A stretch of 63,997 nt of DNA, counting the filler, from Asterionella formosa (Eukaryota): NCBI GenBank assembly GCA_002256025.1. It is 8 parts of 8 records of this genome, joined end to end, with 100 filler letters (N's around TTAATTAATTAA, not from the genome) between each part and the next. Parts side by side here need not be neighbours in the genome. Positions count along the whole stretch, not along the records: positions 8,103 to 16,100 come from NKIB01012344.1; 7 more parts are not named here. The stretch is one strand, 5' to 3'. This document shows, piece by piece, positions 541 through 59,776 of this stretch. A program made the position numbers and the translations under genes. Below the pieces are notes generated by a model. That model ran no database searches. It was not told where the DNA came from and saw only the letters and a list, made by a program, of their open reading frames with translations. Position 1 is the first letter of the stretch, and each line of letters opens with the position of its first letter.

Positions 541-1186
541 ATCCTTCTTACTCCATGATACTACACTATGATACAAATTAATGATACAGTGTCAAGTTTG
601 GAAAAATGAATGAAATTCAGTTCAAATCGTGTTACTGTTGCTGATACATTTTCAAAAAATTTCAAATTCCATGATTCACGAAAAAAATGATAAGAACGGC
701 CCCAAGAAATTTTTAAATGTGAATCAAGTATGGCCGGTGTGGGTTTGCAAGACCTCGCAAACCGGGTCAATCAAATATATTGATAAGTAAATTGAATTTG
801 ACCAATCAAAATTTTTATAGTGAAGCATGCACTTTTACCAAAGTGTTTTTTGTATAGGCGATTGTAGGACGAAAAATTGAATCACAAGACTCTGATTCCG
901 ATATATGACGTTTCGGGATTCTTGAGACCGCTGAAAAGGCCGATATTGTTAAATATTTGTACCACCACAACAGCTCCACGTTGGCAGGGTTTGAGGAACA
1001 GTTAAGAATTACATATTAAGTGTGTGGAGGATGAGAATAAAAAAATTACCGGTAGTTCGTATCCTTTGGCCCATAATGAGGAGCGAAGCAGAAGATTTTT
1101 TCACGATAGATTTTTTATCCCTCCTCATTAGTCATAGTTTACCCTCCTCACTTCTGTCCTGTGTCGACACCGTTCACAGCAAATCC

Positions 1187-3418
1187 ATGTCAAGGAACAA
1201 TCAGAACAACAAGAATGGCGATGGCGGATTGAAGAAGGATGAACCCAATGACAAGCAATACCTTGACATTAGAGGTCCCGATGAGGAGAACCCCCCAACT
1301 TTGTCGACTCCCCAAGAAGGAACTCATGGTGGCGGAGAAGGATCTTCTTTCCTAGCAAGGAAGCGCCTTATAGCTGGGAGAAGCCCTACTGCATCAAAGC
1401 AAATGAACAAGACACTTGCTATGGGTTCTCATGGTGGAGAAGAGTCGCCGTTCCTCACAGAGAACCTTCATTCTCCTGACAGCATTTCCTCAGTCGTCTC
1501 ATCAACAACTCAGGAAATAATGGCACTTCCATCACAACAAATGAGTATTGGAGCTTTCGCAGTTGGAAGGGGTGATCCCGTTTTTCATGACCACACCACT
1601 GTCGCTCCTAATAACGAAAACCAGGGTGAACATGGCAATCAGGAAATTGCAACAATGCTCAATGCCATTCTAGTGGATGATTCTGCATTTGCAAATGCTT
1701 CTATTGTTGACTGTGAAGCAGAAGAAAAAGCAAAGCGTCGACTTCAAGTGCGAACAGCCTTGGTGTTATTTTTTGTGATTGGCATATTAGTTGCCATTAT
1801 TGCTATTCCGATTCAGATCACAAAACCAGAACCATCATTTTCTGTTCCAACATCACCAGGAGTAACTATTATTTCATCATTGGCTCCATCAGAATACCCG
1901 TCAGCAGCCCCTTCTTCAAGTTTGTTCAGTTTTTTGGCTGCACACTCGTTTGATAATGGAACAGCACTTTCAACTACTGGCTCCTCACAGCAGAGGGCAA
2001 TGACATTGGTGGAACAATCATCAGTATATAGCAGTACCACAGACTATTTTGTGTTGCAATTCTATGCCTTGGCAGTGCTCAATTATGCAACTGGTGATAC
2101 TCTTTATCCCAAATCACGGTTTCAAAATAATGAAACCGTTTCTCAATACAATTTTTGTAATTGGAACCCTAACATCATAATTTGCAACAGTGAGACAGAA
2201 ATTACAGATTTGAGCCCTTCTTTTCTTGAACTTGTTGGATCCCTTCATTCTGAAATAGGACTTTTGACAACTCTCACTCTACTTTCCTTGAATGTCAATT
2301 ATTTCACTGGTACACTTCCCTCAGAGATTGGACTCTTAACAAGTCTCAAACATCTCGATTTGTCCACCAACACATTCACTGGCTCACTTCCCTCAGAGAT
2401 TGGACTCTTGACAAGTCTCCAATATCTAGATTTTTCCTCCAATATGTTCAACAGCACAATTCCCACCGAGATTGGACTCTTGACAAGTCTCACTGATCTG
2501 TCCGTATTCCTCAGTACATTCCCTGGCTCACTTCCCTCAGAGATTGGACTCTTAACAAGTCTCAAACATCTCGATTTGTCCACCAACACATTCACTGGCT
2601 CACTTCCCTCAGAGATTGGACTCTTAACAAGCCTCCAACATCTAAATTTTTCCTCCAATATGTTCAACAGCACAATTCCCACCGAAATTGGAATCTTGAC
2701 AAGTGTTGAACTTCTAGATTTTAACCTGAATACTTTTACTGGCACACTTCCCACAGAGATTGGACTCTTGACAAGTCTCACTGATCTTTATTTGTATGAC
2801 AATACTTTCAATGGCACATTTCCCACAGAGATTGGACTCTTGACAAGTCTCACTCATCTAGATTTGATCTCCAATAATCTCTCTGGCACACTTCCCATGG
2901 AGATTGGATTGTTGACAAGTCTAAATGTTCTAGGTTTGAGTGAAAACATTTGGAATGGCACACTTCCCACAGAGATTGGACACTTGACAAGAATCACTGT
3001 TCTATATTTATCCTCCAGTACTTTCACTGGCACACTTCCAACAGAGATTGGACTCTTGACAAGTCTCAATTATCTATATTTGTACTCCAATACATTCACT
3101 GGCACACTACCCACAGAGATTGGACTCTTGACAAGGCTTGCTGATCTGTTCATGTTCCTCAATACATTCACTGGCTCACTTCCTTCAGAGATTGGACTCT
3201 TGACAAGTCTCACTGATCTTTCTTTGTTCTCCAATTCTTTCACTGGCACACTTCCCACAGAGATTGGACTCCTGACAAGTCTCTTTAATCTAGATTTGTC
3301 ATCCAATATATTCACAGGTACAGTGCCAGCAACAATATGGCCTGGACTTAATGCAACTCTCTTTGCACTAAGATTGAGCAACAATGTATTCAATGGATCA
3401 GTCCCTCAAGATTTCTAA
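1187..3418 (+). CDS. Type II transmembrane leucine-rich-repeat receptor-like protein (plant-specific 24-aa LRRs), intronless, 743 aa
   Basis: Likely start is ATG 1187 (MSRNNQNN; its 5' context resembles the paralog starting at 6321). Disordered N-tail with GAFAV motif, one TM helix (TALVLFFVIGILVAIIAIPI), Ser/Pro stalk, LRR N-cap (QFYALAVLNY...CNW...C), then about 17 repeats of LxxLxxLxLxxNxFTGTLPTEIG. No kinase domain. Confidence 0.9.
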   Translation: MSRNNQNNKNGDGGLKKDEPNDKQYLDIRGPDEENPPTLSTPQEGTHGGGEGSSFLARKRLIAGRSPTASKQMNKTLAMGSHGGEESPFLTENLHSPDSISSVVSSTTQEIMALPSQQMSIGAFAVGRGDPVFHDHTTVAPNNENQGEHGNQEIATMLNAILVDDSAFANASIVDCEAEEKAKRRLQVRTALVLFFVIGILVAIIAIPIQITKPEPSFSVPTSPGVTIISSLAPSEYPSAAPSSSLFSFLAAHSFDNGTALSTTGSSQQRAMTLVEQSSVYSSTTDYFVLQFYALAVLNYATGDTLYPKSRFQNNETVSQYNFCNWNPNIIICNSETEITDLSPSFLELVGSLHSEIGLLTTLTLLSLNVNYFTGTLPSEIGLLTSLKHLDLSTNTFTGSLPSEIGLLTSLQYLDFSSNMFNSTIPTEIGLLTSLTDLSVFLSTFPGSLPSEIGLLTSLKHLDLSTNTFTGSLPSEIGLLTSLQHLNFSSNMFNSTIPTEIGILTSVELLDFNLNTFTGTLPTEIGLLTSLTDLYLYDNTFNGTFPTEIGLLTSLTHLDLISNNLSGTLPMEIGLLTSLNVLGLSENIWNGTLPTEIGHLTRITVLYLSSSTFTGTLPTEIGLLTSLNYLYLYSNTFTGTLPTEIGLLTRLADLFMFLNTFTGSLPSEIGLLTSLTDLSLFSNSFTGTLPTEIGLLTSLFNLDLSSNIFTGTVPATIWPGLNATLFALRLSNNVFNGSVPQDF

Positions 3419-8002: not shown

Positions 8003-8102
8003 NNNNNNNNNNNNNNNNNNNNNNNNNNNNNNNNNNNNNNNNNNNNTTAATTAATTAANNNNNNNNNNNNNNNNNNNNNNNNNNNNNNNNNNNNNNNNNN
8101 NN
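8003..8102. other. Artificial 100-bp contig linker N44-TTAATTAATTAA-N44 (also at 16101, 24194, 32283, 40370, 48445, 56512)
   Basis: Identical linker with stop codons in all frames; flanking contig lengths decrease monotonically. Confidence 0.97.
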
Positions 8103-9475
8103 GGAAGCAGACGAGGATTCATGATACCTTTAGGATGATTGATGTGTATATGTATATGCATGATACCGACATCTTTTTTGGTAAGAGCAAGCCATTTCGG
8201 GTATGAGCAAGCAAGTCTTGAAATATTCCGGGAAATTCTTTATAGTCATTCATGTCTGAACATCTTTTTATATAATGCACTGTTATTTATAACTGTAAAA
8301 AATTTGTGTTTGTGTTGACCAAATTTGGTAATCCTGGTAAGCACCCCCTAGAGGACCAAATCAATTATTGGTAGGTGTGTGTATGTCTAATATACATAAA
8401 CCCAAAATGAAGTGAAAACAATCTAGTAGTAGTATGAAATCATGCATCAGTGTAATAATAGCCTAAATACATACTAGCTGTGTATGACCACCAGCATGAT
8501 GATCAGCAGATATCAATTGATTGGCAATCTAATCTGTGGCATTGCTCTATCTGGAATATATACCTCATACATTTTGTCAATTTGCAATGTGGCAGTGAAA
8601 AGAACACAGCTCAAAGTAGGGCAGTCATCATATCCCACACACAACGCTATGCCAACCAACAAAACTCCACCATTCTTACTATATCCTGCTCAACCCTTCT
8701 TGTAAAATTTTCAGCAACCTTACAAACCTAATTCCAACTTTTTGCATTCCTACCACAGAACAAATAGTTTTTGGTGTAACAGAAAGACTACAATACTGAC
8801 AGAATTGCTTCCTCCCTCCTACCTCTTTGACACATTTCCTGCATCATTTCTGTTGGTTCATCAACTTGTTAATTGTTGAAAACTTCTTCAAACACCACAT
8901 TTGAGGCATTTCTGGACTCTCAATCATCATTCTGCAAACTTGTCACTCCTGCTACCACCAATAACTAGTAATCAGGGGGAGTCAAAACTCCTTCAAGACA
9001 AGAGTCGACTGGCTGATGTCATCCACCTTAGTTTCAAAACTAGGCTTGTTTCTTCACATGAAGATCATACATATTGCTAGACAAGATCTGGATCCTGATC
9101 ATGTCTTTATTAGAAAAGAACTTGTCAACAACCATTGATTGGGCACCGAATGGTCATATCACCATGATGCATATAGACATGATCCTCAAAGCATTGTCTG
9201 CATGTGAAATGATCTTTGCACATGGAAACAGAAGTAGAACCTTTTGCCACACCCAAGATATAGTACAGCACTTTCATTCACATTCATCATTCCATTTATC
9301 CCACTGTATGCTTGTTTGGGATGTGTTAGACTAACTAGCTCACAATAATTATAAAGGTACAATCTGATCAACTTCACTTGTTCACAATAGTTATCTTTTA
9401 TAATTGTTGCATTGCCTATATCAGCTTTGCATTGCAATTCCCACAAAGTGGAGTCTTGGCACACAAGACACATTG

Positions 9476-11271
9476 TTATGTTCTATCATTCAGGTCATGA
9501 TTTTCAAAGGCAATTCTCATTTGTGACGATTCAGATCCCCCATTATGATTAATCTTTGGCCTCTTCGAGCGATTTATCATTTGTGGCGATTCACATCCCC
9601 CATTATGATCTGTTGGCCTTACAAGTTGACCCAATTTTTTGACCAATTTAATAGTTGTTGGTCTCTTTGTGCGATTGTTCTGAATGCAATGAATGGCTAA
9701 TGTACAAACCGAGGCCAGAATTCCATCTTCCCATTCCTTTGCTAGAGGATCAGCATCCTTTACCAATTTTGGAATTGCCTCCTTTACTACCTCTGCTGGA
9801 GCTTTTTCATCATCATCACTTGGTAAGTAGTGTTCAGAGAACTGTCCCAACTTTGTCACATCATTTTGGAGGCAGCCTGTCACAAGCTCAATCATGACAA
9901 TGCCAAATGAGTAAACATCACCTGATGCTTCAAATTCTTTACCCGTAGAATGAAATGGACATGTGTAGCCAGGTGTCCCATATGTTCCATCACCTGCTGT
10001 GTAACAAAATGAAGGAATTGGGTTGGTTTTTACTGAGCTACCCTTAGGCACAAACTTGGCTAAGCCACAATCAATAAGCTTGGCAGTATAGTTCTGATCA
10101 AGGCAGATATTAGCTGACTTGATGTCACGATGAAACAGAGTGTGGCCATCCTGTTTTATAGTATGAAGGAAGTCGATGGCAGAAATAATTTCGTTCATGA
10201 TTCGAAGTCGGATCTTACTTGTAAGACTTGATCTTTTTTGTTCACTCTTATAGAATCTATCAAGTGACCCCTTGGATAATAGCTCATACACCAGGTATTG
10301 ATCAGATACCACGTGTTGATCAGATGAAACAGGGGACAAATGATAGCCATACAAAGTTACAATATGAGGGTGTCGGAACCGCTTTAATACCTGAAACAGT
10401 ATGATGGAAGAATCAGAAACATAATAGACTTGAAACAACCTGCAATAGATGATACTACAGATGATCTTACCTCCAATTCTTTTTTAAAACTCTTACTAAT
10501 TCCTTTTTTCTGATCTTCCAAAAAACCTAAATTGAAACGAAGACATTTCACAGCAAAATACCGGTTATCATCCACACCTTCATAGACAGCACCAAAAGAA
10601 CCATGACCAAGTTTTTTCTCTTCAGCAAAATGGTTTGTACAATAAGTAATGAATTCCTTAGGAAGCTCGATTGGTCTTGAATCCACATTGTCCATAGCCA
10701 ACTTCATTTTCGATCGACCTTCAGAAATGAAATCAGTTGTGTTGGCTGCTGTTTGGTTGCGGTTCTTGTTTGCATCAACCCGTATTTGAATTTCATATAG
10801 TAAACCTTTACCAATATCATTATCTTCGAGTTCAAGTTCAGTCAAGACAGTATTGACCTTGAGAGCCTCTGCAATGGCCTTGGCTCCGTCATCACCAATT
10901 GAATTACGATAGAGATAAAGTGTAGTCAAGACACTATTGACCTTGAGAGCTTCTGCAAAGGCCTTGGCTCCGTCATTACCAATTGAATTATTAGAGAGAT
11001 TAAGTGAAGTCAAGACAGTATTGTCCTTGAGAGCTTCTGCAATGGCCTTGGCTCCGTCAACACCAATTGAATTAATAAGGAGATCAAGTGTAGTCAAGAC
11101 AGTATTGACCTTGAGAGCCTCTGCAATGGCCCTGGCTCCGTCAGCACCAATTGAATTATATGGGAGATCAAGTGTAGTCAAGACAGTATTGTCCTTGAGA
11201 GCCTCTGCAATGGCCTTGGCTCCGTCATCACCAATTGAATTATTATAGAGATCAAGTGTAGTCAAGACAGT
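9476..11271 (-). CDS. RI-type (NLRC3-like, 28-aa) LRR fused to a Pelle/IRAK-like protein kinase; 5'-truncated; exons 11271-10471 and 10390-9476
   Basis: About 5.5 repeats of TTLDLxxNSIGDDGAKAIAEALKVNTVL, then T..FAEEKKLGHGSFGAVY, FAVK, FKKELE. An 80-nt GTAAG...TTTCAG intron (10470-10391) joins in frame to VLKRFRHPHIV, LVYE, HRDIKSANI, DCG, GTPGY, DVYSFG, C..RP. No ATG or splice acceptor upstream; the repeat breaks into a pogo relic. Confidence 0.85.
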
Positions 11272-11272
11272 A

Positions 11273-12447
11273 CATTTACAAATGGATTTCAATTGCCAAG
11301 TCCGCAACCCCAGAAGGTATAATGAAAATTGTTCTATTGAGGAAGCAATATTTGTTTGTCATGCATACTAGTAAAACCAGGAGACAAGATTTGATCAAAT
11401 CAAAACATTTGAAAAAGTATTTGTTAATAGTGCAACAACTGGAAAGAAGTGGAAGCCAGAAGCAACTTGTATTCCAAAATACAAATAATTTTCTCCACAA
11501 TTGGCAGCTTTGTCAAAAGCAAAGAAAAACAACTATGCATTATGGAACATTGGATCCGCTAATTGATGCATTCCACATGCTACAAAGGGACCTGCTCTAG
11601 GGTCCACCCTTGGACATCCAATCAAATATCTTGATCTTGTCACCAACATGACCTACTCTAGATTTGAGCGTCGTCATGCTGCTTCATTTGAAGTAGCTAG
11701 TTATTGTTTCACTGTGACATCGGTTTGGTCAACAGAACTACTCTGAAGATTTTCATAAGTTATTAAAAGATCCTGGAAGTATTCGTACCTGGACTAGAAG
11801 AGTTATTTCAAGGGCTCAGTTTTCGGAGCATGTAAACATAATTTCACAAAAGGTTCCTGTTAAATGGTGGGCTGATATTGCCCAGAGTCAGTCATTACCA
11901 TTGAGCTCCAAGTGGATAATGTTTTCAACATGGATGAGACTTTCATTCTTGTCTACCCTGGTAAAGACAAGGTACTTTTACTAAAAGATCCTTGGTTCCA
12001 GTTGAAAATGACAAAAAGGGAGTCACACTGGCAGTCATAGCTAGTCATCTTCCTTCACAACTTCTCCCATTATTCATCATTGATACTGGATCATTTGGAG
12101 CAGATCTGATGACCTCTTGGTGCAACAACTACACAAAGTCAACAGTTATTTTCAACAAATCAAATTCATGACTCAATATGCTTTTATTATATATCTTGAC
12201 TGGCTATTGAAAAATTTTCAAATGTCAAAGGTCTATGCTTATTGTAGATCGATCCAAAATTCATTTTGGAACATTCTTGTCTCCAGGTATTCCTGTCTCC
12301 AGGTACCCTGGTAAAGACAAGGTACTTTTACTAAAAGGAACAAAACAAGTAGGCTCCTTGGTTCCAGTTGAAAATGACAAAAAGGGAGTCACACTGGCAG
12401 TCACAGCTAGTCTTCTTTCTTCACAACTTCTCCCACCATTCATCATT
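11273..12447 (+). mobile_element. Degenerate pogo/Tigger-like DDE_1 transposase (with a short internal re-duplication at ~12300-12447)
   Basis: Frameshifted VDNVFNMDETF...PG...GTKQVGS...DKKGVTLAVTAS...LLPPFII...MTQYAFIIYLDWL, typical of the pogo DDE_1 catalytic region. Confidence 0.75.
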
Positions 12448-13805
12448 TCATAACAAAACCACACAATTTGGTAATGATGGTTTCCCAATACTGATGATTC
12501 ACCTATAACTTCATCAATATTCAATCAACCCACTATGTTAAACGTCTCAATTCAATGGCCCATAGTATTGAATAACTTACTATCAAGGAATCATTCATAC
12601 AACAAAGACCATTCTCCAGATAAAGTCACTATATCATTTCGTAACAAAACCACACAATTTGGTAATGATGGTTTCCCAATACTGATTCACCTATAACTTC
12701 ATCAATATTCAATGAATACATCATGTCGAACCGTTCTTTTTTCTGGCACAAAGTATAGAATAAGATACTATCAATATATCATTCATACAACAAGGACCAT
12801 TCTCCAGATGATATCACTATATCATTGTATAGCAAAACCACACAATTTGGTAATGATGGTTTCCCAATACTGATTCACCTATAACTTCATCAATATTCAC
12901 TCAACACATCACGTTGAACGTCTCAGTTCCTTGGCTTATAGTATAGAATAAGGTACTATCAATATATCATTCATACAACCAGGACCATTCTCCAGATAAG
13001 GTCACTATACGATTTCATAACAAGACCACACCATTTGGCAATATGGTTTTCCAATACTGCTTCAGCACCTATAACTTCATCAATATTCAATGAATACATC
13101 ATGTTGGAAGTCTCAATTCCCAGGCGCGTAGTATAGAAAAAGATTTATTTAACAATATGTCATTCATACAACAAGGACCATTCTCCAGATGAGTTCACTA
13201 TGTCATTTCATAACAAAACCACAATATTTGGTAATGATGGTTTCCCGATAATGATTTCACCTATAACTACATCAATATTTACTCTAAACATCATATTGAA
13301 CGTCTCAGTTCATTTGAAAATAAGTTTAGAATAAGGTATTATCAATGTATCATTTATACAACAAGGAACATTTTCCAGATGAGGTCGCTACATCATTTCG
13401 TAACAAAACCACACAATTTGGTAATGATGGTTTCCCAATACTGATTCACCTATGACTTCTTCAATATTCAGTCAACACATCATGTTGTACGTCTCAATTC
13501 ATTGGCGCATAGTTTAAAATAAGGTACTACTATCAATATATCATTCATACAACCAGGACCATTCTCCAGATAATGTCATTATATCATTTCATAACAAAAC
13601 CACACCATTTGGTAATGATGGTTTCCCAATACTGACGATTCACCTATAACTCCATCAACATTCAACAAACAAATCATAATGAACCTTTCTTTTTTACTGG
13701 CACAATATTCCAGCAACGCATTATGTTGATCGTCTCAATTCACTGGCTGGCACATAGTATAGAGTAAGGTACTATCAATTTATTATTTATGCAAAAAGTA
13801 CCATC
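12443..13805. repeat. Tandem satellite, about 7 diverged units of about 190 bp
   Basis: A CAAAACCACACAATTTGGTAATGATGG-type anchor (with point variants) recurs at 12454, 12645, 12833, 13021, 13214, 13404 and 13595 (spacing 188-193 bp). Confidence 0.92.
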
Positions 13806-14594: not shown

Positions 14595-15205
14595 TCACCT
14601 CATACTCAGGCTACAACACGTTCTTGTACAGACAAGATGACGACATTGGTATCGTCTATTGGTGATGGAGGGGACGCAATAACACTCTGTGGGAAGTGTG
14701 CTATTGAAAGTATTGCCGGACAAATAAAGATAAGTGAGACTTGTCAAGAGTCCAAAGTACTCTGTGGGAAGTATACCAGTGAGACTTGTCAAGAGTTCAG
14801 AACCCGTAGGTGACGGTGCTGCAACCAATGATGATTTAGATTTTGTGAGCTGAATGGGAGTTGCGATGATGGTTACTGACAAGCCAATTACCAAAAATAG
14901 CACCAAGGCAGTCCGCACTTGACGTTTACATTGAGCCCTTGCTTTTGCTTTAATGTCAACAACAGAGGCACTGGCAAGTTCTGGATCAACCACTAGCTCA
15001 GCATTGAATAGTGTTGCACGTTCTAGCTGGCCATGTTCACTCCTAATCTCGTTGGTGTCAAAATCAAAATCAACATTACCATTCACAAAGGAATAGTTCT
15101 GTGAAGATGTCCATAATCCCTGAAACGCACCAGGACCAGGAAATGAATCAACTCCGAGATTCAAACATTCTGTTTCTGTCTTCTTTCGACGAAAAGCTCT
15201 TAGCA
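14595..15205 (-). pseudogene. Internally deleted, 5'-truncated TM-LRR paralog
   Basis: PGAF...LFNAELVVD...RQVRTALVLFLVIGLSVTIIATPIQLTK matches the juxtamembrane and TM region of 1187-3418. The stalk then jumps directly to about 1.5 LRRs (GLLTSLTYLYLSGNTFNSTLPTE) and a Cys-rich tail. The 5' end abuts the second pogo copy. Confidence 0.8.
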
Positions 15206-16100
15206 TTTGTTAATAGTGCAACAACTGGAAAGAAGTAGAAGCCAGAAGCAACTTGTATTCCAAAATACAAATTAAATACAAATAATTTTCTCCACAATTG
15301 GCAGCTTCGTCACAAGCAAAGAAAAACAACTATGCCTTATGGTACATTGGATCCGCTAATTGACGCATTCCACAAGCTACAAAGGGACCTGCTCTAGGGT
15401 CCACCCTTGGACATCCAATCAAATATCTTGTCCAGCAGATTCATGTCACCAAAATGACATATTCTAGATTTGAGTGTGGTGATGCTGCTTCATTTGAAGT
15501 AGCTAGTAATTGTTTCACTGCAACATCGGTTTGGTCAACAGAACTACTCTGAAGATTTTCAGAAGTTATTGAAAGATCCTGGAAGTATTCGAACATGAAC
15601 TAGAAGAGTTATTTCAAGGGCTCAGTTTTCGGAGCATGTAAATATAATTTCACAAAAGGTTCCTGTTAAATGGTGGGCTGATATTTCCCGGAGTCAGTCA
15701 TTACCATTGAGCTCCAAGTGGATAATGTTTTCAACATGGATGAGACTTTCATTCTTGTCTACCCTGGTAAAGACAAGGTACTTTTACTAAAAGATCCTTG
15801 GTTCCAGTTGAAAATGACAAAAAGGGAGTCACACTGGCAGTCATAGCTAGTCATCTTCCTTCACAACTTCTCCCATTATTCATCATTGATACTGGATCAT
15901 TTGGAGCAGATCTGATGACCTCTTGGTGCAACAACTACACAAAGTCAACAGTTATTTTCAACAAATCAAATTCATGACTCAATATGCTTTTATTATATAT
16001 CTTGACTGGCTATTGAAAAATTTTCAAATGTCAAAGGTCTATGCTTATTGTAGATCGATCCAAAATTCATTTTGGAACAATTATTACAGATTGGCTAGAA
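15206..16100 (+). mobile_element. Second copy of the degenerate pogo-like transposase fragment
   Basis: Near-identical to 11420-12273 (offset about 3.8 kb), including shared disabling lesions. Confidence 0.85.
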
Positions 16101-16200
16101 NNNNNNNNNNNNNNNNNNNNNNNNNNNNNNNNNNNNNNNNNNNNTTAATTAATTAANNNNNNNNNNNNNNNNNNNNNNNNNNNNNNNNNNNNNNNNNNNN

Positions 16201-17789: not shown

Positions 17790-20700
17790 GTAGTAGTAAC
17801 AGGGATTCCTGCAACTCAATCACTGCTGCTCTTGAATATGCTGCCCTGTTTCAAGATGGTGAGACTCTCATTCATGTTGATACTGGAGCAAATGGAAATG
17901 TGACATGTGTCAGTAATGAGCTCCATAACGTGGTCAGCTCTACCGTGGTCTGTCAAACTGCCAAAATTGGAGACAATGATCAGGTTGGTTATATTGGCAC
18001 ATTACTACCTTGTTTCATATTTGCTGATCGTACACTCGAATTAGAAATATCCTTGCCAAACACTGTTGAACTTCCCCATTATCGCCGACGGTCACTTAGT
18101 ATTCATGCCCTCAAACGACTTGGATATGAAGCTGATCATTGCCTTCGCCGACATGGGAACCTCCTCTGGTTAAAGCTCCCTAATGGAAAAGAATACTCAT
18201 TTAAACTTCTTACATTCGATGACGCTGATTATCTAATTGTGCGCCTCCATAAGCTTGCTCTCACGATCACTACATCTGCTATTAACCTAGTTAATACTAT
18301 GAAACCTAAAGGGCTATACCAAGGCGCTCTTAGATCATCCAGCTGGTGATCAATCAGTAGCAACGCACACCATGGCTCTGCGACATGCTATTGATGATCT
18401 TATACCTAGCTGTTCGCCGTGGTTACCTCATGACATGTCTATAACGGAAATTTCAGATCTTCTCCCTGATGAGGCACATGGACTGATGTTAGAATATCTC
18501 CCTGATTTGGCTCGCTGCGAAATTATTGGTATTGAACCTTGCAGTGCCTTTGGACGACATATGACCAAAGGACCTACGCAATTACTCCGTGGTCGCATTC
18601 TGTTACAGATTAACGGTAATGATGTTCGAACGGTTAATGATGCAGAAGAGTTATTAGATGGATATGTGAGCGCAACCCATGGTCGTTTATCCTTAAGGGA
18701 TCACTATGATCCTCGCTTTGTCCCTGGTATTCTTACAAACTTGACCATCCTGTCTGTGAAGAAACCTCGCGCTAATGCTCTATGGCATGACACCTTCATT
18801 TTTGGTGCAGGTGATCTCAGTGTGCTCAGATCAGGGTTCACAGTCTCTTTGATAACCTCTACGCCAGCGAGCTAATGCCCTCGCTCTTTTCACGAAGCAA
18901 TGAAAGGACCATTTAAAGGGGAGTGGAATGCAGCACAGTTGTCACAGTATTGGAACATTTGGACCACCATCACTCGCTCCTGCCAATGCAACGATACTTC
19001 CAGCTGTACTGGTCTTCAAACATGTCCTTAATACTGCAAAACAAATCAATGATCGCAAAGTTCGCCTCTGCGTGAATGGTAGTTTCCAAATCAAAGGAGT
19101 AGATTACACTGAATCTTTTGCACCAACCATCTTGGCTATGTCTATCAAAGTTTTTCTTGCCATTGGTACATATCTGCATTATGATTTTTACCATCTTGAT
19201 ATTAGCAATGCATTTCAAAATACACCAGCAACTCCCAATGAAGCTGGCAATCGCATTTGGATCAGAGTGTTTCCTGAGTACATCCTATGGTTCCAAACTA
19301 GATTCCCTACTGAATATGCCTCAATGACTAAAACACTCCCGGCTAGTAACAAATATGCATGGAAATCTCTTGGAGTTGAAATGTTTGCACATGTTCAAGG
19401 TCGCAAAGATGCATCCCGTGAATGGGGAGAACATATTGACAAAGTCATATGTGGGGAACTTGGACTACTAGTAAAGAATCGAGCAGATCAATGCATTTAC
19501 CAAGGAATTATTAATACTCACCATGTCATCATGGCCAGAGCTACTGATGATATCCTCATTGGAACACATTCTCTCGCTACGTACAAGCACATTGTTGCCA
19601 CCTTAGAATCTCAATGGAAGGTTCATAACTTGGGAATTGTCTCACAATTTTTTGGACTTCGGTTCCTCTTAAGCCCCAATTGTATAAATATTGATCCAAT
19701 CCATATGGTTTCGGAGATATTAACATATGTCTACGGTACCACATGGAATAAGCAAGCACTCTCCATTGCAAATATAGTCCCTATGCTTGCTGGAACACAG
19801 CACGAGGAAGCCTTGGCAAGTTGTGTACCATATTCAAGCCTCGAGATGAAAACAGCCATCAAAACATACTATGGATTTGAATATTGCACACTGTTGGGGC
19901 AGCTTCAACATCTCTGTCAATGGACTAGATTAGATATTCAAACTGCAGTTCAACGTCTTGCTCAATATCAAAATGCTCCTGGCATGTTTCACTTTGAGGG
20001 ACTCCTTCAAATTGCTAAATATCTTCGTCGCTATCCTGACCTTCCTCTTACTTTCAATCGAAACATACCACGTGGTTCAGTTATTTTTATTGCCCACATC
20101 AGCCAAGCAGCTCCGTGGTTAGGCGAACCCACTGTTATTAGTGTCGAAGCTCATCAGTTTGACAAAGAGCAAACATTTTGGCACATTCCTAGTAAGCTGA
20201 CGACTAGTGGAGTGATTGAAACTCATCATATTAATGCAATCAACTTGCCTCACCTTCTGCAGGAACAGAAGCATTTTTCGGGTGTGAGAAGTAGCCAAGG
20301 TTTAGCCGCGATAACCAAGGGATTTGCCGATGCAAATTTTGGAGGGGCGGTTTTTGACCGTCTTGCCTACTCTGGCGGAGTAGTCATGATCAATGGTACA
20401 GCTGTTATTACATTGTGTCGCAAACAAAGTACCACTGCTTACAATAAAACAGAAGCTGAACTAGATGCTGCTACTACATTATCTAAACATGTGCTCTGGC
20501 TCCTACGAATTTATATGGAAGACATGTATCTCCCTTACCACACTCCTATTGCTATCGGTGAAGATAACTCTGCTGCACAAATTATTGCTGAGACTGGCAA
20601 ACTCACTCGCAATGTTCGTCATATAGCCACTAAGACACAGGCTCTCCAGGAACATGTTCGCCATGTTCGAGTCTCTTTTCACCATGTGTCATCTGCTCAC

Positions 20701-21056
20701 AATTATGCGGACCACTTCACCAAAGCTTTACCATTTGCTACTCTCAGTGCTCACTGCATGACCATGATGGGATATTCTTTCCTTGATGCTGGTCATCGGG
20801 CTCTTGCTCATCCATTTTCTTCCGTCCTCTGACAACTATTGCTTTCATTTTCTTTCTCTTTCATTTTCTTCTTCCAGAGATGGGGGGATATTATAAATCG
20901 CAAGTCTGTCCTTCTGATCTATCTTTTATCTGACGCATGAAGTATTCTGTACTCGTGTGACTCATTATTCTAGTCAAGTTAAACTACACTAATCACTCTT
21001 TTAACATACCCACTTCCAAACTCTTTTTGAGCTTGTCAGGTTTGTTAATCGACTCA
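17790..21056 (+). mobile_element. Ty1/copia (CoDi-type) LTR retrotransposon relic: protease, PDZ-like region, RT, RNase H, PPT and 3' LTR; integrase apparently deleted
   Basis: IHVDTGANG protease motif (~17870). RT motifs KVRLCVNGS.Q..GVDY.ESFAP, LDISNAFQ, ATDD. RNase H motifs GFADANF, TEAEL, EDNSAA, NYADHFTKAL (ORF 18928-20832). Polypurine tract GAGATGGGGGG at 20877-20887, then LTR ~20889-21056 ending CA. Confidence 0.92.
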
Positions 21057-24676: not shown

Positions 24677-25724
24677 ATGGTATCAGCCAGTACTATCGTT
24701 TTGGAATGGATTTGCCCGGCACTTGGCGTGGTCATGGCGAACATTATGTTTTTAGGTGAGACGTGCGAGTCAGCCACAAGTCGAGGGTGAGGCAAAGGAA
24801 TCTCACGTGTTTGAACCAGCAGCATTGCTCACACATTCACACACAGCCCCTGTAAAGGCCCTCCGACAAGCCGTTTCCAGGGGACAATTGGGAGATTTGA
24901 ATCCAACTCCCTGGGCCTTCATGCTGGGGAATTGTTTGGGATGGATCGCTTATAGTTTCCTCTTGCAAAATCTTTTTATATTCTTTGCAAATGCACCGGG
25001 ATTTCTGCTGGCGGTGTGGTTCAACCTATGTGCCGCAAAACTTCAGTATCAAACGCACAGAGCCACCGAGATGCGACGCTCTCTCGTTCAACTCGTAGAA
25101 GAGGAACAATCCAAAGAGTTTACACGCAGTGGGACTCTATCCGACAAAAACGAAGGTACGTCGCCCGACGCTACAATGGTGTTGGGAGAATTTGCCAAGA
25201 CCGTTCTGCAAGTCACTACCCAAGAAATGACGGCACCTGCTCCGCATGAAAATTTGGTGGTGGCTATTGTTGTGATTTGGACTGCGACTCTGTCTATCCT
25301 AGGATTTGCTAGCACCTTGGACGAACGCACGAAGGAACTTATCGTGGGGTTTCTCGTGAATGTCAACGTCATGTTCTTCTATGGAGCACCTCTTTCCAAG
25401 ATATTCACGGTTCTCAAGACGAAATCATCCTCGTCCATTCATATTCCGACCATGGTTACCAACACATTGAACGCTGTCTTTTGGACCGCCTATGGGTCGG
25501 CTGTCGCTGATCCCTTTTTGTATGTGCCGAACGGCATGGGCGCTTTATTTGGTGGTTGTCAAATCTTGCTCTTGGTACTCTTTCCGAGAAAGAAAATGGC
25601 AGATCTGAAAGAGGCAAAGATTGACGAGGGGGTCAAAAGCATTGATGTGGAAAGTACAGGAAGTCAAGTCGAGACTGCCGACACTGGGGTCGGGACTACA
25701 AAGCAAGTTGAGCCGCAAGAATGA
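24677..25724 (+). CDS. SWEET: SWEET/MtN3-family sugar transporter, 318 aa; exons 24677-24755 and 24847-25724
   Basis: Exon 1 MVSASTIVLEWICPALGVVMANIMFL, then a 91-nt GTGAG...ACAG intron, gives MFLAPVKAL...LNPTPW...NCLGWIAY...NAPG. Second MtN3 repeat: FYGAPLSKI..V.KTKSS.SI.......N...W..YG....D.F..VPNG.G. Confidence 0.93.
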
Positions 25725-25920: not shown

Positions 25921-28263
25921 CTAGCAGTTATAAAAGTTCCAAGGTCGTGGACTCAACACTCGTACACGTCCTTGTTTGGTACCATAAACAAATCCATAAC
26001 CAGAGTCTGGATGAAATCGGGCAATGTTAACATCATCGTCGCCACTAAGCATTGTGGACACCTGTGTCATTCCACCGCGAACTCGATAAAGGGCTGTTAC
26101 GGGGTGAAGCCCGCTGTCTTCTCCATTCTCATTTAGTGGTTCTCGTACTCCGTAACCCAATAAGCAGAACTCGGACGACGGGGAAAATTTCACGCAAGTT
26201 ACAGCTGAGGCCTTGGCTCCGTCCAATGGGCAGGCCTCAAGTAATTGACCAAGTCGAGGCCGATGACCTCGAGCGACAGAGGCAATAAGTCCTCGTTGCT
26301 CTGTCGGTACGGTACTGGTAGCTGCTAGGGGTGATGTGTCCAAACTCACGGTCACAACATGTGGGACATACCGACCCGGTAGAGACGAGACATACTGCGA
26401 AACATCCACCATGGACACTCCCATAATAACGGAAAGTGGATGTGGTGGTCGAACCGGGGCGACTGTCAAATCATGCGGATCTACGCCTTGTTGGGATGGG
26501 GGCATTCCTGGGTGTCCACGGCCATTAGTGTTGCCATTGCGGTTGGATCCAAGTCCACCAGGAAAGCGACGACCAGGAGGCGAAGGGGGCGACAGCGGCA
26601 TTAGTGAGCGTGACGGATTGGGCGGAGTCAACGGCAGCGGCATTCCTGCACGTTGACGTGGTGGTGGTATTGATGCTGTGAAAGTAGATGCTCGCTCTCT
26701 TGGAGGAGACTGAAACGAGACTCCATTCGGCATCGTCGTGAATGGACACTCCGCCTTTGCTATCGGAGGTGACGACACATCGCCTTCTGATTTGCTCTTC
26801 ACTAATGAACTCTGCAGGGATATCTTCGTGTTTATAGGGGAAGCAATGATTTCTTCTTCTACAGAATAATCTGGATCATCATCTTCACTTCGTTGCGCAA
26901 ATATTTCCTCTTCCTTTTCCAGCAACTCTATTGCACTGTTGACACCATCAGGTAACCAATATTCGGCACAGGCACATAGCACTTTTCCATCTGGGGAAAC
27001 ATCAAATCCTCCGTCATTATAAAGCATGGCCCTAGGAATTATTGTTCGGGGCTAGAGACAAATTTGGAATTGAGTGCACTTTGTTGACAAGGCCCTACAT
27101 GAACTAGGAGGATAACGAGCGACAAGACTGAAAACAATAACTACAAGCCATATTGCACACAGACACACCGAGCCACTCACATTTCCCATTGACTTTCTCC
27201 GAATGGTAGAGGTTTGTAATACCCCAGTCTCGGGGTGCAAGGCTACGTCAAGGTCAAAGTCCCATAGCTTCAAGTAAAATGAGATAGCTCCTGTCGGAAT
27301 CCTGCCTTGCCGATTTTCGTTGGGATTCATCCCACCCACAATAACCGACTTTCCGTTCGGCGGAAAATGCACACACCTTAACATGTGCCGTTGTTCCACT
27401 TCCGTAAGTACACCTCGTGTTGATTTTCGGCCCTGGTCATCTAGACGCCCCCCTGCGTTGTCATAGTCCCAAAAGTGCAAGCGAGTGCCGCTGGCGATGG
27501 CAAGTATGTGTCCGGATGGATGAAAGGATAGACTTATGATAGCATAATCCAACCTAATCATTTGTAAGCACTGGCCTTGCTCCCAGTTCCAAACCCTAAC
27601 TTGAAAACCAAGACAGCCACTTGCCAGAATCTCCGGGGACAGTGGATGGTACTTGACAGTCCACGGTGTTCTCGGATGTCCTTCTAGGCTCTTTAACAGT
27701 ACCCCCGTCGAGCAGCACGTAATCTTAACAGAGTGGTCTCCATGCGTGGACGCCATAGTTCTCGCATCTGGTGAAAACGCGACACTAATGGTTGAAACAG
27801 CCTTGGAGGACGACGGGCGTTCCCCAGTAGCATCCCGGACATCGTCGCCGCCCAAGTGTTTAAAAAAAGCTGTTTGAAATGCAGTAACAGACACGTATTC
27901 CGCAAACGACTGAATTTCCGATAGCAGAGGAGCCGGGTAGGCCGATCTTGATCGAATGGCCGCACTCGTGTCGTCGCCTTGTTCGTCGCTCCGCTTTCGC
28001 TTCGGGGAGGTAACCTCAGCAGCCAGCACTGTATACCTGCATCCTCGCACTTCTCGCTGGCACAGAACGTCCAAAATGTTGCGACCATTCCGCGCGTGTG
28101 AATGTATTCTCCTGTGGAGCAAGGATTCTCCTTCGATCGTCTTGCGAAAGGCCCATCGTTGCCGTAGTTGAGCGAGGGAGGGATGCTCCAGAATCAGGTC
28201 AGGTGCCTCGCGGCTTGATCCCGAAAGCCCCATGAAGTCTTCCCAATCGAAGGAACCATTCAT
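25921..28263 (-). CDS. AMBRA1: AMBRA1-like split WD40 protein (DCAF-type); exons 28263-27181 and 27051-25921
   Basis: AFSPDARTMASTHGDH..KI......L.GHPRTPWTVKYHP...LASGCLG..VRVW and LYNDGGFDVSPDG match the N- and C-terminal AMBRA1 WD40 halves. A 129-nt GTGAG...CTAG intron restores the frame. Start taken at MNGSFDWEDF. Confidence 0.85.
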
Positions 28264-28867
28264 GCTGCCACTGCCTACTATTGAAGTGGGCGCTGCGGCA
28301 AGACAAGACGACAAAAACACGACCTCAACGTTGATGTTCCTCTTCAGTCTTTGTTCTGTTTCGTCGGCACTGCCATGACAGCGCCAGGAATTTGATTGAA
28401 CAAGAATACATTAGCATTACAAAAAGCGGCAATTCTAGGAATAGTTTATAATATAGAATAACTACGGTATATTTCGGTGAATAAATAAGCAAAACTAAAC
28501 TAACATTATGTGAATACTGGCACAGACGTACAATATTCGGTAGCTGGATCACAGGTTGCGTCAGGCAGATATGCTGTATCTAGTGCTGTGTAAGCTACTT
28601 ACGTACTGGTACCAGGTACTCCATCTAGTAGAAAGGAAGACAGCAGGGCGGAGCGAACAAAAATGGGGAGAGATCCTTACCACTAATTAATCGCTAGTGC
28701 CGGTACCAGGGTACCTGGTACCAGGTACCAGGTAGCGTAATACCCATCAGGTAAAGAACAACGCACAGAAGTGGTGGGATCAGCGGTCGTACATGTACGT
28801 GGTAAGTATCAGACGATACAGTATAAATGCTACTGGTACTCGCTGTAAAATTTTAGGGGGACCAGGC

Positions 28868-29953: not shown

Positions 29954-30172
29954 NNNNNNNNNNNNNNNNNNNNNNNNNNNNNNNNNNNNNNNNNNNNNNN
30001 NNNNNNNNNNNNNNNNNNNNNNNNNNNNNNNNNNNNNNNNNNNNNNNNNNNNNNNNNNNNNNNNNNNNNNNNNNNNNNNNNNNNNNNNNNNNNNNNNNNN
30101 NNNNNNNNNNNNNNNNNNNNNNNNNNNNNNNNNNNNNNNNNNNNNNNNNNNNNNNNNNNNNNNNNNNNNNNN
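29954..30172. other. Scaffold gap (219 N) inside a contig
   Basis: Run of N without the linker sequence. Confidence 0.95.
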
Positions 30173-57543: not shown

Positions 57544-59776
57544 CTAACCAGCACAAGATTTACTATTTTCACAGAAACTGCCACAGTTGCAAATCAGTAG
57601 TGGACAAGCATAAATGCCCTGTATTGGTGCAATATTACATGCTTCTGTTGGAACTGCCCCTGTGAAATAATTTTTTCCAAAAGATAATATGGCTATCAAA
57701 AAAGTGAAATATCAGAACAAATGGTCAAGAAATGTAAGTTTCATATTAAAAAAACTTACTCAATGAAGACATGAGACCAATTTCTGTGGGAATTTCATCA
57801 GTAAACATATTGGAATGAATCTGAAAATTATTGACTTTTGTCAAATTGCCAATCTCTGTCGGAAGTGCACCAGTCAACTGATTATCATATAGATACAATT
57901 TCGTTAGATTTGTCAAGTATCCAATCTCTGTTGGAAGTGTCCCATTTAACTGGTTGTTGTCGGCTCCAAATTCTATGAGGCTCGTCCAATTTCCTATTTC
58001 TGTTGGAAGTGCACCAGTCAACTGATTATCATATAAATACAATAATGTTAGATTTGTCAAGAATCCAATCTCTGAAGGAAGTGTTCCATTGAAATGGTTT
58101 GTGCTTGCATCAAATGTTGCAACATTTTTCAAATTGCCAATTTCTTTCGGAAATGCACCAGTCAACTGGTTTACCCAAAGAACTAATACTGTTAGACCTG
58201 TCAAGTATCCAATCTCTGTAGGAACTGTGCCAGAGAGACGGTTGGAATTTGCTCTAAAATCAATGAGATTTGTCAAATTGCCAATCTCTGGAGGAATGGT
58301 ACCAGTGAATGAATTGTTGAAGATATATAATTTCATTAAACTTGTAAAGAATCCAATTTCTGTTGGAATTGTTCCCTTCAAAAAATTTATTTGTAAAGAC
58401 AAAAATTCAACAAGGTTAGTCAATTTGCCAAGTTCTGTTGGAAGTGTTCCAGTCAACTTGTTACCATACAATGACAATGCTGTGATGTTGGTCAACTGTC
58501 CAAGCTCCATTGGAATTGGTCCAGCAAGCTTGTTATTGCTTACAAACAACCCTGTAACACTTGTCAGTCGACCCATTTCACTTGGTAGTGATCCACTTAG
58601 AATATTATTTGACAAGTGCAACATTTCTTTGTTGTAAAATTATATTACTCATTTCATTAGTGAGCGATTCTCAATAATAATTTGATTTTTTCTTGCTGTG
58701 ATTGTATACTTACCTAAGTTTGATAAAAGACCAACTTCCAGGGGAATGGACCCCATTAAGGTATTGTTGTACAAATCTATCGAAATGACCTGGCTACTAT
58801 CCATATTGCAAGTCAATCCAAACCAATTGCAATAATTGTTGGTGCTAAATAGCCACAATGAACGGTTGAGCCACTGGTCTCCAGAAGTTGCATAATAAAG
58901 AGTCACCAAGGCATAGATTTGGAGCAACGTATCATTATACATGATATCTGCAGTACCTGGCTCACTTTCCAACCAGAGCATTGCCTGCTGTTGTGGCGTG
59001 CCATTAGTCAAAAGTGCAGCCCCATTATCAAACGAGTTATTTGACAAAAACAAAAAAAATGGTGTAGAGAGAATTACAAATGTGGGAGCCAACTTTTGAT
59101 TGTCCGGAACATAAGATGTTGGAACCAATGTTGGATTATTCGGTTTGCTGTTCTGAGTAAGCACAACTGCAAGTACAACAGCTACGATGGCAACAAGACT
59201 TGTGAAACCGCAAGATACCATGATGTTGATCATGCTACGGTGACGTTGGGCCTTTGCTTCAGCCTCAGTGTTGATGGCCGTCACAGTGTCAATCAAAATA
59301 GTGGCAGACATAAAGGTTTCAAATTCATCAACAGGAGTGGCATTCACTGTCTCCTGTTGGCCTCCCTCTATGGCATGAATGGCAAGTGGTTGTTGACTGA
59401 TTCCATGGGACTCCTCTTCATTCCATTCATTGTTTGTAGCTTCAGTACTAGGACTTGCACGATCTCTCGCTCCCACCGCAACTGCTCCAGGAATTGTTTG
59501 TGGAGGTGCTGGTTCTTCATGCTCCACCGCCACCTTGGAAGAATCCTGGTACGAAAAATTAGACCCTCGCCCGGCCTTGTGGTCAACATGTTCCTTCTCA
59601 TCAAACACTTGTCCATGTGAAGAGTCAGAGTCCCGTGCTCGTTCTTCCTCCTTTGCTTCGTCAGCAAAAGGCAAGGTGGAATCAATACTCTTCTTTTTTG
59701 CAGGCAGAGAAGGTTTCACTGCACTTACGTGATCACCTGGGCTGCCTTTCTTGATATTCTTTTTATCGTTGTTCAT
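57544..59776 (-). CDS. Type II transmembrane LRR receptor-like protein, 692 aa; exons 59776-58714, 58626-57760 and 57692-57544
   Basis: N-tail with FADEAKEEE and PGAVAV, TM helix (LVAIVAVVLAVVL), N-cap YALVTLYYATSG..W....W......C.WFG..C, about 13 LRRs. Two GTAAGT...AG introns (87 and 67 nt, both phase 1) restore the frame and add the Cys-rich end ACNIAPIQGIYACPLLICNCGSFCENSKSCAG*. Confidence 0.9.

Follow-up and report, generated by a model that had tools for sequence, protein, structure and literature searches.

A gene-like locus with leucine-rich repeats (LRRs) followed by a protein kinase domain is located on the minus strand of a stretch of DNA from the diatom Asterionella formosa (assembly GCA_002256025.1; 63,997 nt, eight parts joined end to end, referred to here as the window). 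The reading frame opens past a TGA at 11361-11359 and ends with a TAA at 9478-9476. Exon 1 lies at 11358-10471 (-) and exon 2 at 10390-9479 (-), and the spliced product has 600 residues. In Pfam, exon 1 matches LRR_6 with E 7.3e-32, and the start of a Pkinase domain on its last 50 residues is weak when taken alone (E 0.0018); exon 2 matches Pkinase with E 4.7e-26 over profile positions 51-259 of 263, and PK_Tyr_Ser-Thr with E 1.3e-20. The LRR array has a period of 84 nt, that is 28 residues, with 5.3 copies and 90% matches at 10828-11272 (Tandem Repeats Finder). The LRRs, their cap, the linker and the N-lobe of the kinase are coded in one unbroken frame (Table 1). A first-pass annotation of the locus had described 28-residue LRRs of ribonuclease inhibitor (RI) type, joined through a short soluble linker to a kinase, and the coordinates, strand and intron came out as annotated.

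Among solved protein chains, exon 1 is most similar to a ribonuclease-inhibitor-like one (E 6.7e-42), and 82 distinct chains were matched at E 0.001, among them a designed RI-type LRR, DRC5, ribonuclease inhibitor, RanGAP1 and LRRs of NLRP/NOD type. The LRR_6 assignment, the 28-residue unit and closest chains that include RI, NOD2-like and NLRP proteins are what the array has in common with NLRC3 and other RI-type LRR proteins. No membrane helix was identified in the spliced 600-residue product: the highest 19-residue Kyte-Doolittle mean is only 1.33, lies inside the LRRs, and no segment reaches 1.6, so the product is predicted to be without a membrane helix, and the annotated lack of one between LRRs and kinase holds. 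Nine of the ten variable codons among the five full LRR units change the amino acid, with a focus on unit positions 7, 9, 10 and 15, positions that we assign to the concave face and the loop after it. Nonsynonymous divergence (dN) exceeds synonymous divergence (dS) in 10 of 10 pairs of units, although the counts are low and gene conversion may play a part; the excess between units suggests past selection on the array.

Table 1. Features of the LRR-kinase locus and its flanks (positions along the window; P numbers denote related proteins treated in the text)
Feature	Position	Strand	Remark
Upstream repeated element, next to the broken 5' end	11416..12273	.	Second copy 15202-16079, 94.6% identical
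Non-LRR lead, 29 codons, no ATG	11272..11358	-	Frame opens past TGA; tandem array ends at 11272
Five full 28-residue RI-type (LRR_6) units	10852..11271	-	DNA identity 88-94% among units
Sixth, divergent capping LRR unit TVLTELELEDNDIGKGLLYEIQIRVDAN	10768..10851	-	Similar cap before the linker in P0083, P0202, P0203
Soluble linker, 47 residues	10627..10767	-	Ends in juxta-kinase motif SRPIELPKEFITYCTNHF (10680-10627)
Kinase N-lobe on exon 1	10471..10626	-	Gly loop GHGSFG (10608-10591), Lys in FAVKC, Glu in FKKELE
Intron, 80 nt, GTAAGA..TTTCAG, phase 0	10391..10470	-	Position kept in relatives
Rest of kinase, up to LGQL	9623..10390	-	LVYE, HRDIKSAN, DCG, GTPGYTCPF, DVYSFGIVMIELVTG
Low-complexity tail with internal duplication, to TAA stop (9478-9476)	9476..9622	-	P0125 ends at the same place
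Decayed linker, RING-like finger and following segment, in three frames	9046..9281	-	P0243 alignment

The kinase landmarks are present as the glycine loop GHGSFG, the Lys in FAVKC, the Glu in FKKELE, HRDIKSAN, the Asp in DCG, DVYSFGIVMIELVTG and the Arg in TKRPT. Two of them are altered, with DCG in place of DFG and an APE motif that reads CPF; in relatives the residue after CP is E, W, F, R or Q. The pattern xIDCGxxK was found in 112 of 371 stored proteins, and the DCG and CP(x) changes serve as sequence marks of the kinase family. When exon 2 was compared with all solved chains, plant receptor-like kinases (RLKs), receptor-like cytoplasmic kinases (RLCKs) or IRAK made up 53 of the best 60 matches, with a lectin-RLK on top at 71.2 bits, IRAK4 at 63 and IRAK1 at 57.5 bits. 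Counted among the 53 are 2qkw and 3hgk, labelled 'Protein kinase' only, which are presumably tomato Pto. The first chain outside these groups is the Raf-like CTR1 at 53.6 bits, then SPAK, BRSK2 and NEK2. P0001, an intact relative of 759 residues with 71% identity, gave 58 RLK/RLCK or IRAK chains among its best 60, the remaining two being CTR1, which at 76.5 bits stands above BRI1 (74.8) and BAK1 (72.8). With P0227 as the query the count was 56 of 60, with BAK1 at 105 and IRAK4 at 98 bits, and the remaining four chains belong to CTR1 (best 67 bits) and OSR1 (64). Over the three queries IRAK4 scores 63-98 bits and IRAK1 57-94 bits, CTR1 is the first outsider at 17-38 bits under the top match, and no LRRK chain occurs among the best 60. 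The window product carries PIELPKEFITYCTNHFAEEKKLGHGSFGAVYEG before and at the glycine loop and a YLVYE gatekeeper stretch, while the stretch PIELPKEFITYCTNHF..KLGHGSFGAVYEG and LVYE of P0001 align with the plant lectin-RLK 6cth, the motif in common being CTNxF..KLGxGxFGxVY plus LVYE. An N-terminal extension of the form ..EL...TNxF....LGxGxFGxVY.G and a gatekeeper Tyr (LVYE) are typical features of RLKs and IRAKs. No death domain was found upstream of the kinase in the window, where Pfam gave LRR families only, nor in P0001, P0083 and P0085. By every similarity and motif comparison made, the kinase is IRAK/RLK-like, and the annotated likeness to RLK, Pelle and IRAK is borne out in that RLK/RLCK and IRAK chains come closest among the solved structures.

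The window copy is one member of a larger family, as the first-pass annotation had supposed. A search with exon 2 among longer proteins gave 187 matches at E 1e-10, the best 120 of which were examined, and an exhaustive search gave 153 cluster representatives at E 1e-30; 45 of the best 150 of these, at least 36% identical and with the shortest fragments left out, were scanned with Pfam. Among the best 120 of the 187, the named diatom matches are many rows of Fragilaria crotonensis together with Epithemia, Amphora coffeaeformis and Thalassiosira oceanica, and other named matches are from the oomycete Aphanomyces astaci and the haptophyte Prymnesium parvum. All named matches in this set from outside the protists are from plants, and three carry the label RLK-Pelle or LRR receptor-like kinase. 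The best named relatives agree with a diatom as the source of the locus. As assigned by sequence, named members of the kinase family belong to diatoms, a haptophyte and an oomycete. Many metagenomic reading frames start exactly at exon 2 of the window copy and run about 350 residues beyond the kinase.

A quick maximum-likelihood tree was computed from 54 kinase domains, of which four belong to unrelated LRR_6 kinases and the others to plant rows or protist members of the family; P0125 was left out, its kinase stretch being shorter than 200 residues. The window kinase groups with P0001, P0121 and P0127 (SH-aLRT 99), and this group is nested in a clade of 23 rows (support 97) with RING-bearing forms and ankyrin-bearing forms of Fragilaria. 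The protist family has 38 rows (support 82) and stands apart from a plant RLK/Pelle group of 13 rows (support 93), 12 of them plant rows. This separation could mean that the kinase is an independent protist TKL lineage outside the IRAK/Pelle/RLK clade, which merely scores best there. Its own motifs DCG and CP(x), unlike those of RLK and IRAK, and the rank of CTR1 over BRI1 and BAK1 with P0001 speak for it. PMC3019232, in its accessible parts, classes five Phytophthora infestans kinases as IRAK and detects no IRAK-like proteins in Thalassiosira pseudonana, the latter being a further point for an independent lineage. On the other hand, exon 2, P0001 and P0227 all rank RLK/RLCK and IRAK first by a margin of 17 to 38 bits, the RLK/IRAK-style N-terminal extension motif and LVYE align, and the named non-protist matches are the plant proteins given above. 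Such an origin seems rather unlikely.

Repeats in front of the kinase differ among the relatives. In the best 120 of the 187 matches, precomputed Pfam assignments gave ankyrin N-termini in 24, Kelch in two and LRR_6 in two (P0083 and P0085); among the 45 scanned representatives, LRR_6 precedes the kinase in two (P0202 and P0203) and ankyrin in three, CHAT follows the kinase in three and U-box in two, and plant-type ectodomains occur in seven. P0083, P0085 (Prymnesium parvum), P0202 and P0203 thus carry LRR_6 before a kinase of the same type, with 34-41% identity to exon 2 and E 7e-41 to 2e-44. No hydrophobic segment of 1.6 or more was found between LRRs and kinase in any of these four, so that paralogs with a membrane helix at this place, a possible objection to the annotation, did not appear. 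P0083 begins with Met and a 'LRKNDPKLTYLNL' cap, has no signal-like segment, and matches the window copy in a single 372-residue alignment spanning LRRs, linker and N-lobe. As the four LRR_6 relatives keep it, the soluble LRR-kinase layout is conserved and not specific to this locus. The juxta-kinase motif SRPIELPKEFITYCTNHF starts a module common to the window copy, P0001 and P0127, and the N-terminal region of P0001, the closest full-length relative, is non-LRR. On the kinase tree the LRR_6-bearing rows are scattered, with four changes for four rows, and the N-terminal sensors were evidently exchanged within the kinase family.

Six of the best 120 matches of P0083 are LRR_6 and kinase proteins with an unrelated kinase. 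Of these, P0277, P0302, P0321, P0353 and P0357 were excluded as family members, being only 24-27% identical to exon 2, and P0288 was excluded as it gave no match to exon 2. Since unrelated kinases also carry LRR_6, LRR_6-kinase fusions arose more than once. P0127 and P0005 are tandem kinases; directly behind the complete kinase of P0127 come a further juxta-kinase motif and N-lobe, which have the same intron. Such tandem kinases probably account for a joint that goes back along the sequence in one RNA contig of run X2.

Past the kinase, most family members are predicted to have a RING-like finger and a further domain, and a few have CHAT and a STAND NTPase instead. One HRDxK followed by a C3HC4 pattern was present in 78 of 252 stored proteins. 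P0243, which has 373 residues and is about 68-70% identical to the C-lobe of the window kinase, was modelled with a mean pLDDT (predicted local distance difference test) of 75. Four parts can be made out in the model, namely the kinase C-lobe, a domain with a zinc finger, a helix of 50 residues and a small alpha/beta domain. Its finger resembles RING domains of IRF2BP2, ARIH2, HOIL-1 and RNF213 at modest Z 6.8-5.8, below the level that excludes a common arrangement, and the C-lobe of the model resembles IRAK1 at a likewise modest Z 5.9. The finger has no Pfam match, the model gave no Foldseek match at E <=0.001, and residues 115-373 had Atlas scores of at most 0.81, with leads to RING/IBR only. 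No known family was found for the domain past the coiled coil of P0243, the VIA-align rows being taken by the RING, the coiled coil and the kinase C-lobe. P0240, which is in the kinase tree, has a U-box past the kinase. In P0227 a CHAT domain (E 2e-8) and NB-ARC (E 2.3e-5, just above the Pfam cut-off) are located past the kinase, and in P0203 and P0250 CHAT occurs there together with weaker AAA_16, NB-ARC or NACHT matches. This branch with CHAT and a STAND NTPase (P0203, P0227 and P0250) has LRR_6, helicase-associated or ankyrin N-termini and forms an unusual chain of kinase, protease and NTPase.

On its 5' side the window copy is incomplete, in agreement with the annotation. LRR homology sets in midway through a unit ('KC-TVLTTLDL'), at about 11280, with 29 unrelated codons ahead of it; no in-frame ATG stands ahead of the LRRs, and the first in-frame Met is residue 218 (10707-10705), past the LRRs. 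No other LRR_6 or kinase coding sequence was found within the 64-kb window.

On the 3' side, P0243 can be followed collinearly in four steps. Its kinase C-lobe and an expanded linker run through the in-frame stop down to 9461, VNESA stands at 9281-9267 in a second frame, a RING piece at 9238-9128 is again in the kinase frame with 27 of 37 residues identical (73%) and the first CxxC pair replaced, and the next 27 residues are at 9126-9046 in a third frame. The last 181 residues of P0243 (193-373) have no counterpart in the window. A hidden Markov model of the family RING and C-terminal domain recovered from the window only the RING piece at 9128-9277, with E 2.5e-6. All GT..AG pairs past the kinase were enumerated, and none joins the kinase frame to an intact RING.

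Parts of the stretch are contained in 24 RNA runs, at most 0.28 of sampled words and mostly from lake, freshwater and estuary metatranscriptomes. RNA contigs were compared with the window for four of the 24 runs (X2, X5, X6 and X8, from four studies) at 90% likeness. X2, X6 and X8 each have a single contig with a joint that skips 80 nt (10393 to 10474); X5 has none, and one of its contigs covers the intron unspliced. The joint is offset by 3 nt from the GT..AG borders, which may be because the last exon-1 codon of a relative matches the last three bases of the intron. On the two sides of the joint the X8 contig agrees with the window at only 96% and 91%, so that a relative, and not demonstrably this locus, is its source. 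The intron position is read through in P0083 and P0127, and with the joints in X2, X6 and X8 this indicates that splicing at the 10470-10391 site is real in the family. Of the RNA junction proposed in the first-pass annotation, the spliced joint stands in three of four runs, while the X8 contig, only 91-96% like the window, belongs to a relative. Upstream of 11280, coverage in X2 and X6 is slight or absent, from which nothing is drawn, and contigs with more than one possible placement raise the depth over the LRRs (3902 of 6114 contigs fit two places in X2).

Because both ends are lost, the window copy is most likely a transcribed remnant, which at best would give a kinase-only or decoy product and not a working sensor. 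We consider it probable that this copy is a remnant, truncated at both ends, from a protist family of cytosolic multi-domain TKL kinases. Missing from it would be, beside repeated DNA, the N-terminal cap, the start codon and the beginning of an LRR unit, and also a working RING and the C-terminal module.

Several observations weigh against this reading. No lesion occurs in the 600 LRR-kinase codons, against two frameshifts in a RING relic of 236 nt, and by our own arithmetic uniform decay would give that split about once in 75; since the lesions are confined to the relic, the LRR-kinase part was perhaps longer under selection. Contigs with one mismatch lie on the kinase exon (190 and 112 nt in X6, 125 nt in X2), and it is likely from their match that the window locus or a near-identical copy is transcribed. 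P0001, P0121 and P0125 also end soon past the kinase, P0001 17 residues past LGQL and P0125 at the stop of the window copy, so the short form may be a working subtype. There is a possible acceptor at 11334, and an upstream exon may lie beyond the window. Kinase activity is itself assumed, as the APE Glu is variable in the family and DFG is DCG.

In a second alternative, the window gene is functional as a short form of sensor and kinase without RING, with an unrecognised first exon or a non-standard start, the RING relic being old debris of the 3' untranslated region. The intact frame of 600 codons beside a relic with two frameshifts, the completeness of P0001 at 759 residues, the stop common with P0125, the near-identical RNA contigs on the kinase exon and the dN > dS among LRR units, suggestive of past selection, would all be in agreement with it. 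However, no in-frame ATG occurs before residue 218, LRR homology breaks in the middle of a unit with no AG close by, and neither an LRR cap nor further LRR_6 coding sequence is present in the window. An X2 contig of 377 nt and depth 7.9 runs unspliced from 11272 to 11394. Similarity to P0243 is about equal for the RING relic (73%) and for the kinase C-lobe (about 70%), so the loss of the RING appears to be recent and not old. A functional short form is therefore judged unlikely. That the LRR-kinase adjacency is an assembly or recombination chimera peculiar to this locus is very improbable, because despite the non-LRR N-terminus of P0001, the repeats around the locus and the scatter of LRR_6 rows on the tree, the LRRs, cap, linker and N-lobe are in one frame, P0083 spans them in a single match, the same order with a similar cap occurs in four relatives of the same family, and P0001 retains an N-terminal 'NDPSLTKLSL' cap-like motif as in P0083 and P0203.

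The surroundings of the remnant are rich in repeats. The element at 11416-12273 and 15202-16079 is a direct repeat of 878 nt, and each copy stands directly upstream (in the minus sense) of an LRR-containing frame. Its plus-strand open reading frame (ORF) fragments resemble a DDE transposase, which is a weak lead (Atlas 0.87-0.88, DDE_1 on 11% of one cluster), and no transposase was matched in Pfam by the seven ORFs around the repeat. Between the two copies there is a tandem array at 12442-13684 with a 188-nt period, 6.5 copies and 81% matches. One X8 RNA contig joins LRR-like sequence to 11386-11633, which suggests that the element adjoins LRR arrays elsewhere too.

Plant-like genes of LRR_1/LRR_14 type are located at 14595-15209 (-), 995-3415 (+) and 57749-58639 (-), so the LRR-kinase remnant lies among unrelated LRR genes of the window. 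The frame at 14595-15209 has a hydrophobic segment and then LRRs, and its DNA resembles 1626-1839 with 74% identity. A 642-codon frame at 18904-20829 (+) encodes a copia-type reverse transcriptase (RVT_2, E 2.6e-17) and represents retrotransposon content. Ordinary genes are a SWEET-type sugar transporter domain at 24756-25721 (+), a WD40 protein at 27055-28410 (-) and an M6 (immune inhibitor A-like) peptidase domain at 42283-44511 (+). Pairs of 44-base N runs (8003-8046, 8059-8102, 16101-16144, 16157-16200, and onward) recur every ~8.1 kb, and this regularity resembles masking or scaffolding more than biology; at 16101 one pair interrupts the upstream repeat in its second copy. A single run of 219 N is at 29954-30172.

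Compared with known systems, the window kinase is closest to plant RLK/Pelle proteins, both the RLCKs PBL2 and BIK1 and lectin, LysM and LRR receptor kinases, which are its best matches. It has in common with them TNxF..LGxGxFGxVY, LVYE, HRDIKxxN and DVYSFG..ELxTG, and RLCKs are soluble too. Unlike plant RLKs, the window protein is without a membrane helix or ectodomain, its LRRs are cytosolic, 28-residue and RI-type as opposed to 24-residue and plant-type, its kinase has DCG and CP(x) for DFG and APE, and it is grouped apart from the plant rows in the tree. A plant-type LRR receptor-like kinase has a signal peptide, 24-residue LRRs and a membrane helix, none of which is found in the window product. 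IRAK1, IRAK4 and Pelle have similar kinase domains and are soluble signalling kinases, whereas the window protein has an LRR array as its N-terminus and no death domain; the likeness is one of sequence similarity. Animal IRAKs act upstream of the RING E3 TRAF6, and full-length algal proteins of the family carry the two parts of this step, kinase and RING-like finger, in one chain. In that respect they are similar to plant U-box kinases and other kinase-E3 fusions, with an RLK-like kinase and a RING-like finger; they differ in that the domain past the RING is without a known family, and the window copy has only a broken RING relic. NLR (STAND) receptors differ from the window gene, which has no NACHT or NB-ARC; the STAND NTPase occurs only in P0227, P0203 and P0250, past the kinase and CHAT. 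LRRK/ROCO proteins are also soluble with LRRs upstream of a TKL kinase, but the window protein has no Roc-COR, its 47-residue linker being without a Pfam match, and its LRRs are of another type.

Oomycete LRR receptor kinases and choanoflagellate kinase-TLRs likewise combine LRRs and a kinase in one protein, as described in the accessible parts of PMC3268121, PMC3019232 and PMC6040629. According to the same parts they are membrane-spanning with extracellular LRRs, and the choanoflagellate ones carry TIR, whereas the window protein is predicted to be soluble and RI-type. The first-pass annotation had mentioned fusions of RI-type LRRs and IRAK-like kinases in Capsaspora, for which no support was found: the accessible text of PMC6040629 describes kinase-TLRs of choanoflagellates, in which no MyD88 or IRAK was found, and not Capsaspora LRR-IRAK fusions. 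LRR-receptors of non-oomycete stramenopiles, diatoms included, are reported in PMC2939053, as far as its accessible parts go, to be without attached functional domains, and in the corresponding parts of PMC3268121 only LRR kinases with a membrane helix were counted. It seems from these parts that earlier surveys looked for membrane LRR receptors; they reported no LRR-receptor with attached domains in diatoms. In the accessible literature, supplements being outside the scope, no description of soluble RI-type LRR and IRAK-like kinases in diatoms was found.

For intact members of the family the following order of parts and events can be proposed. Protein-binding repeats (RI-type LRR_6, ankyrin, Kelch or other) would be followed by a short soluble linker with an RLK/IRAK-style juxta-kinase motif and by the DCG kinase. 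Past the kinase there would usually be a C3HC4 RING-like finger, a coiled coil and a further domain of about 130 residues, around a 'CPxLVWIVP..YFVCQHSF' motif, or in one branch a caspase-like CHAT domain with a STAND NTPase. A cytosolic ligand or partner may bind to the concave LRR face, and binding would relieve autoinhibition or bring kinase domains together. The kinase would then phosphorylate its own long activation segment and substrates, and in full-length members the fused E3-like or protease module may pass the signal on. The annotation of the locus as an innate-immune or danger receptor draws on domain association. For the family, a role as immune receptor may be considered a reasonable hypothesis, helped by the CHAT/NB-ARC relatives and by the pattern of LRR variation.

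Mortality caused by viruses, chytrids and algicidal bacteria is heavy among diatoms and haptophytes, and we know of no receptor-to-effector pathway established in them. Quite speculatively, the family could be a one-chain system of cytosolic surveillance in phytoplankton, in which swappable sensor repeats act through an IRAK/RLK-like kinase on a RING-like E3, or on a CHAT protease and NB-ARC NTPase, and in which the LRRs diversify on their concave face. If so, one polypeptide would unite steps that in animals are split among NLR/TLR, IRAK, TRAF6 and caspases, and the diversification of the concave face would fit a receptor in an arms race with viruses or parasites. The window locus matters less than the family, as a probably decayed copy that is a pointer to the family and an example of its turnover. 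The family of repeat, kinase and E3 or caspase-like proteins bears on how often sensor-kinase fusions arose, and it may provide testable candidates for intracellular sensing in algae.

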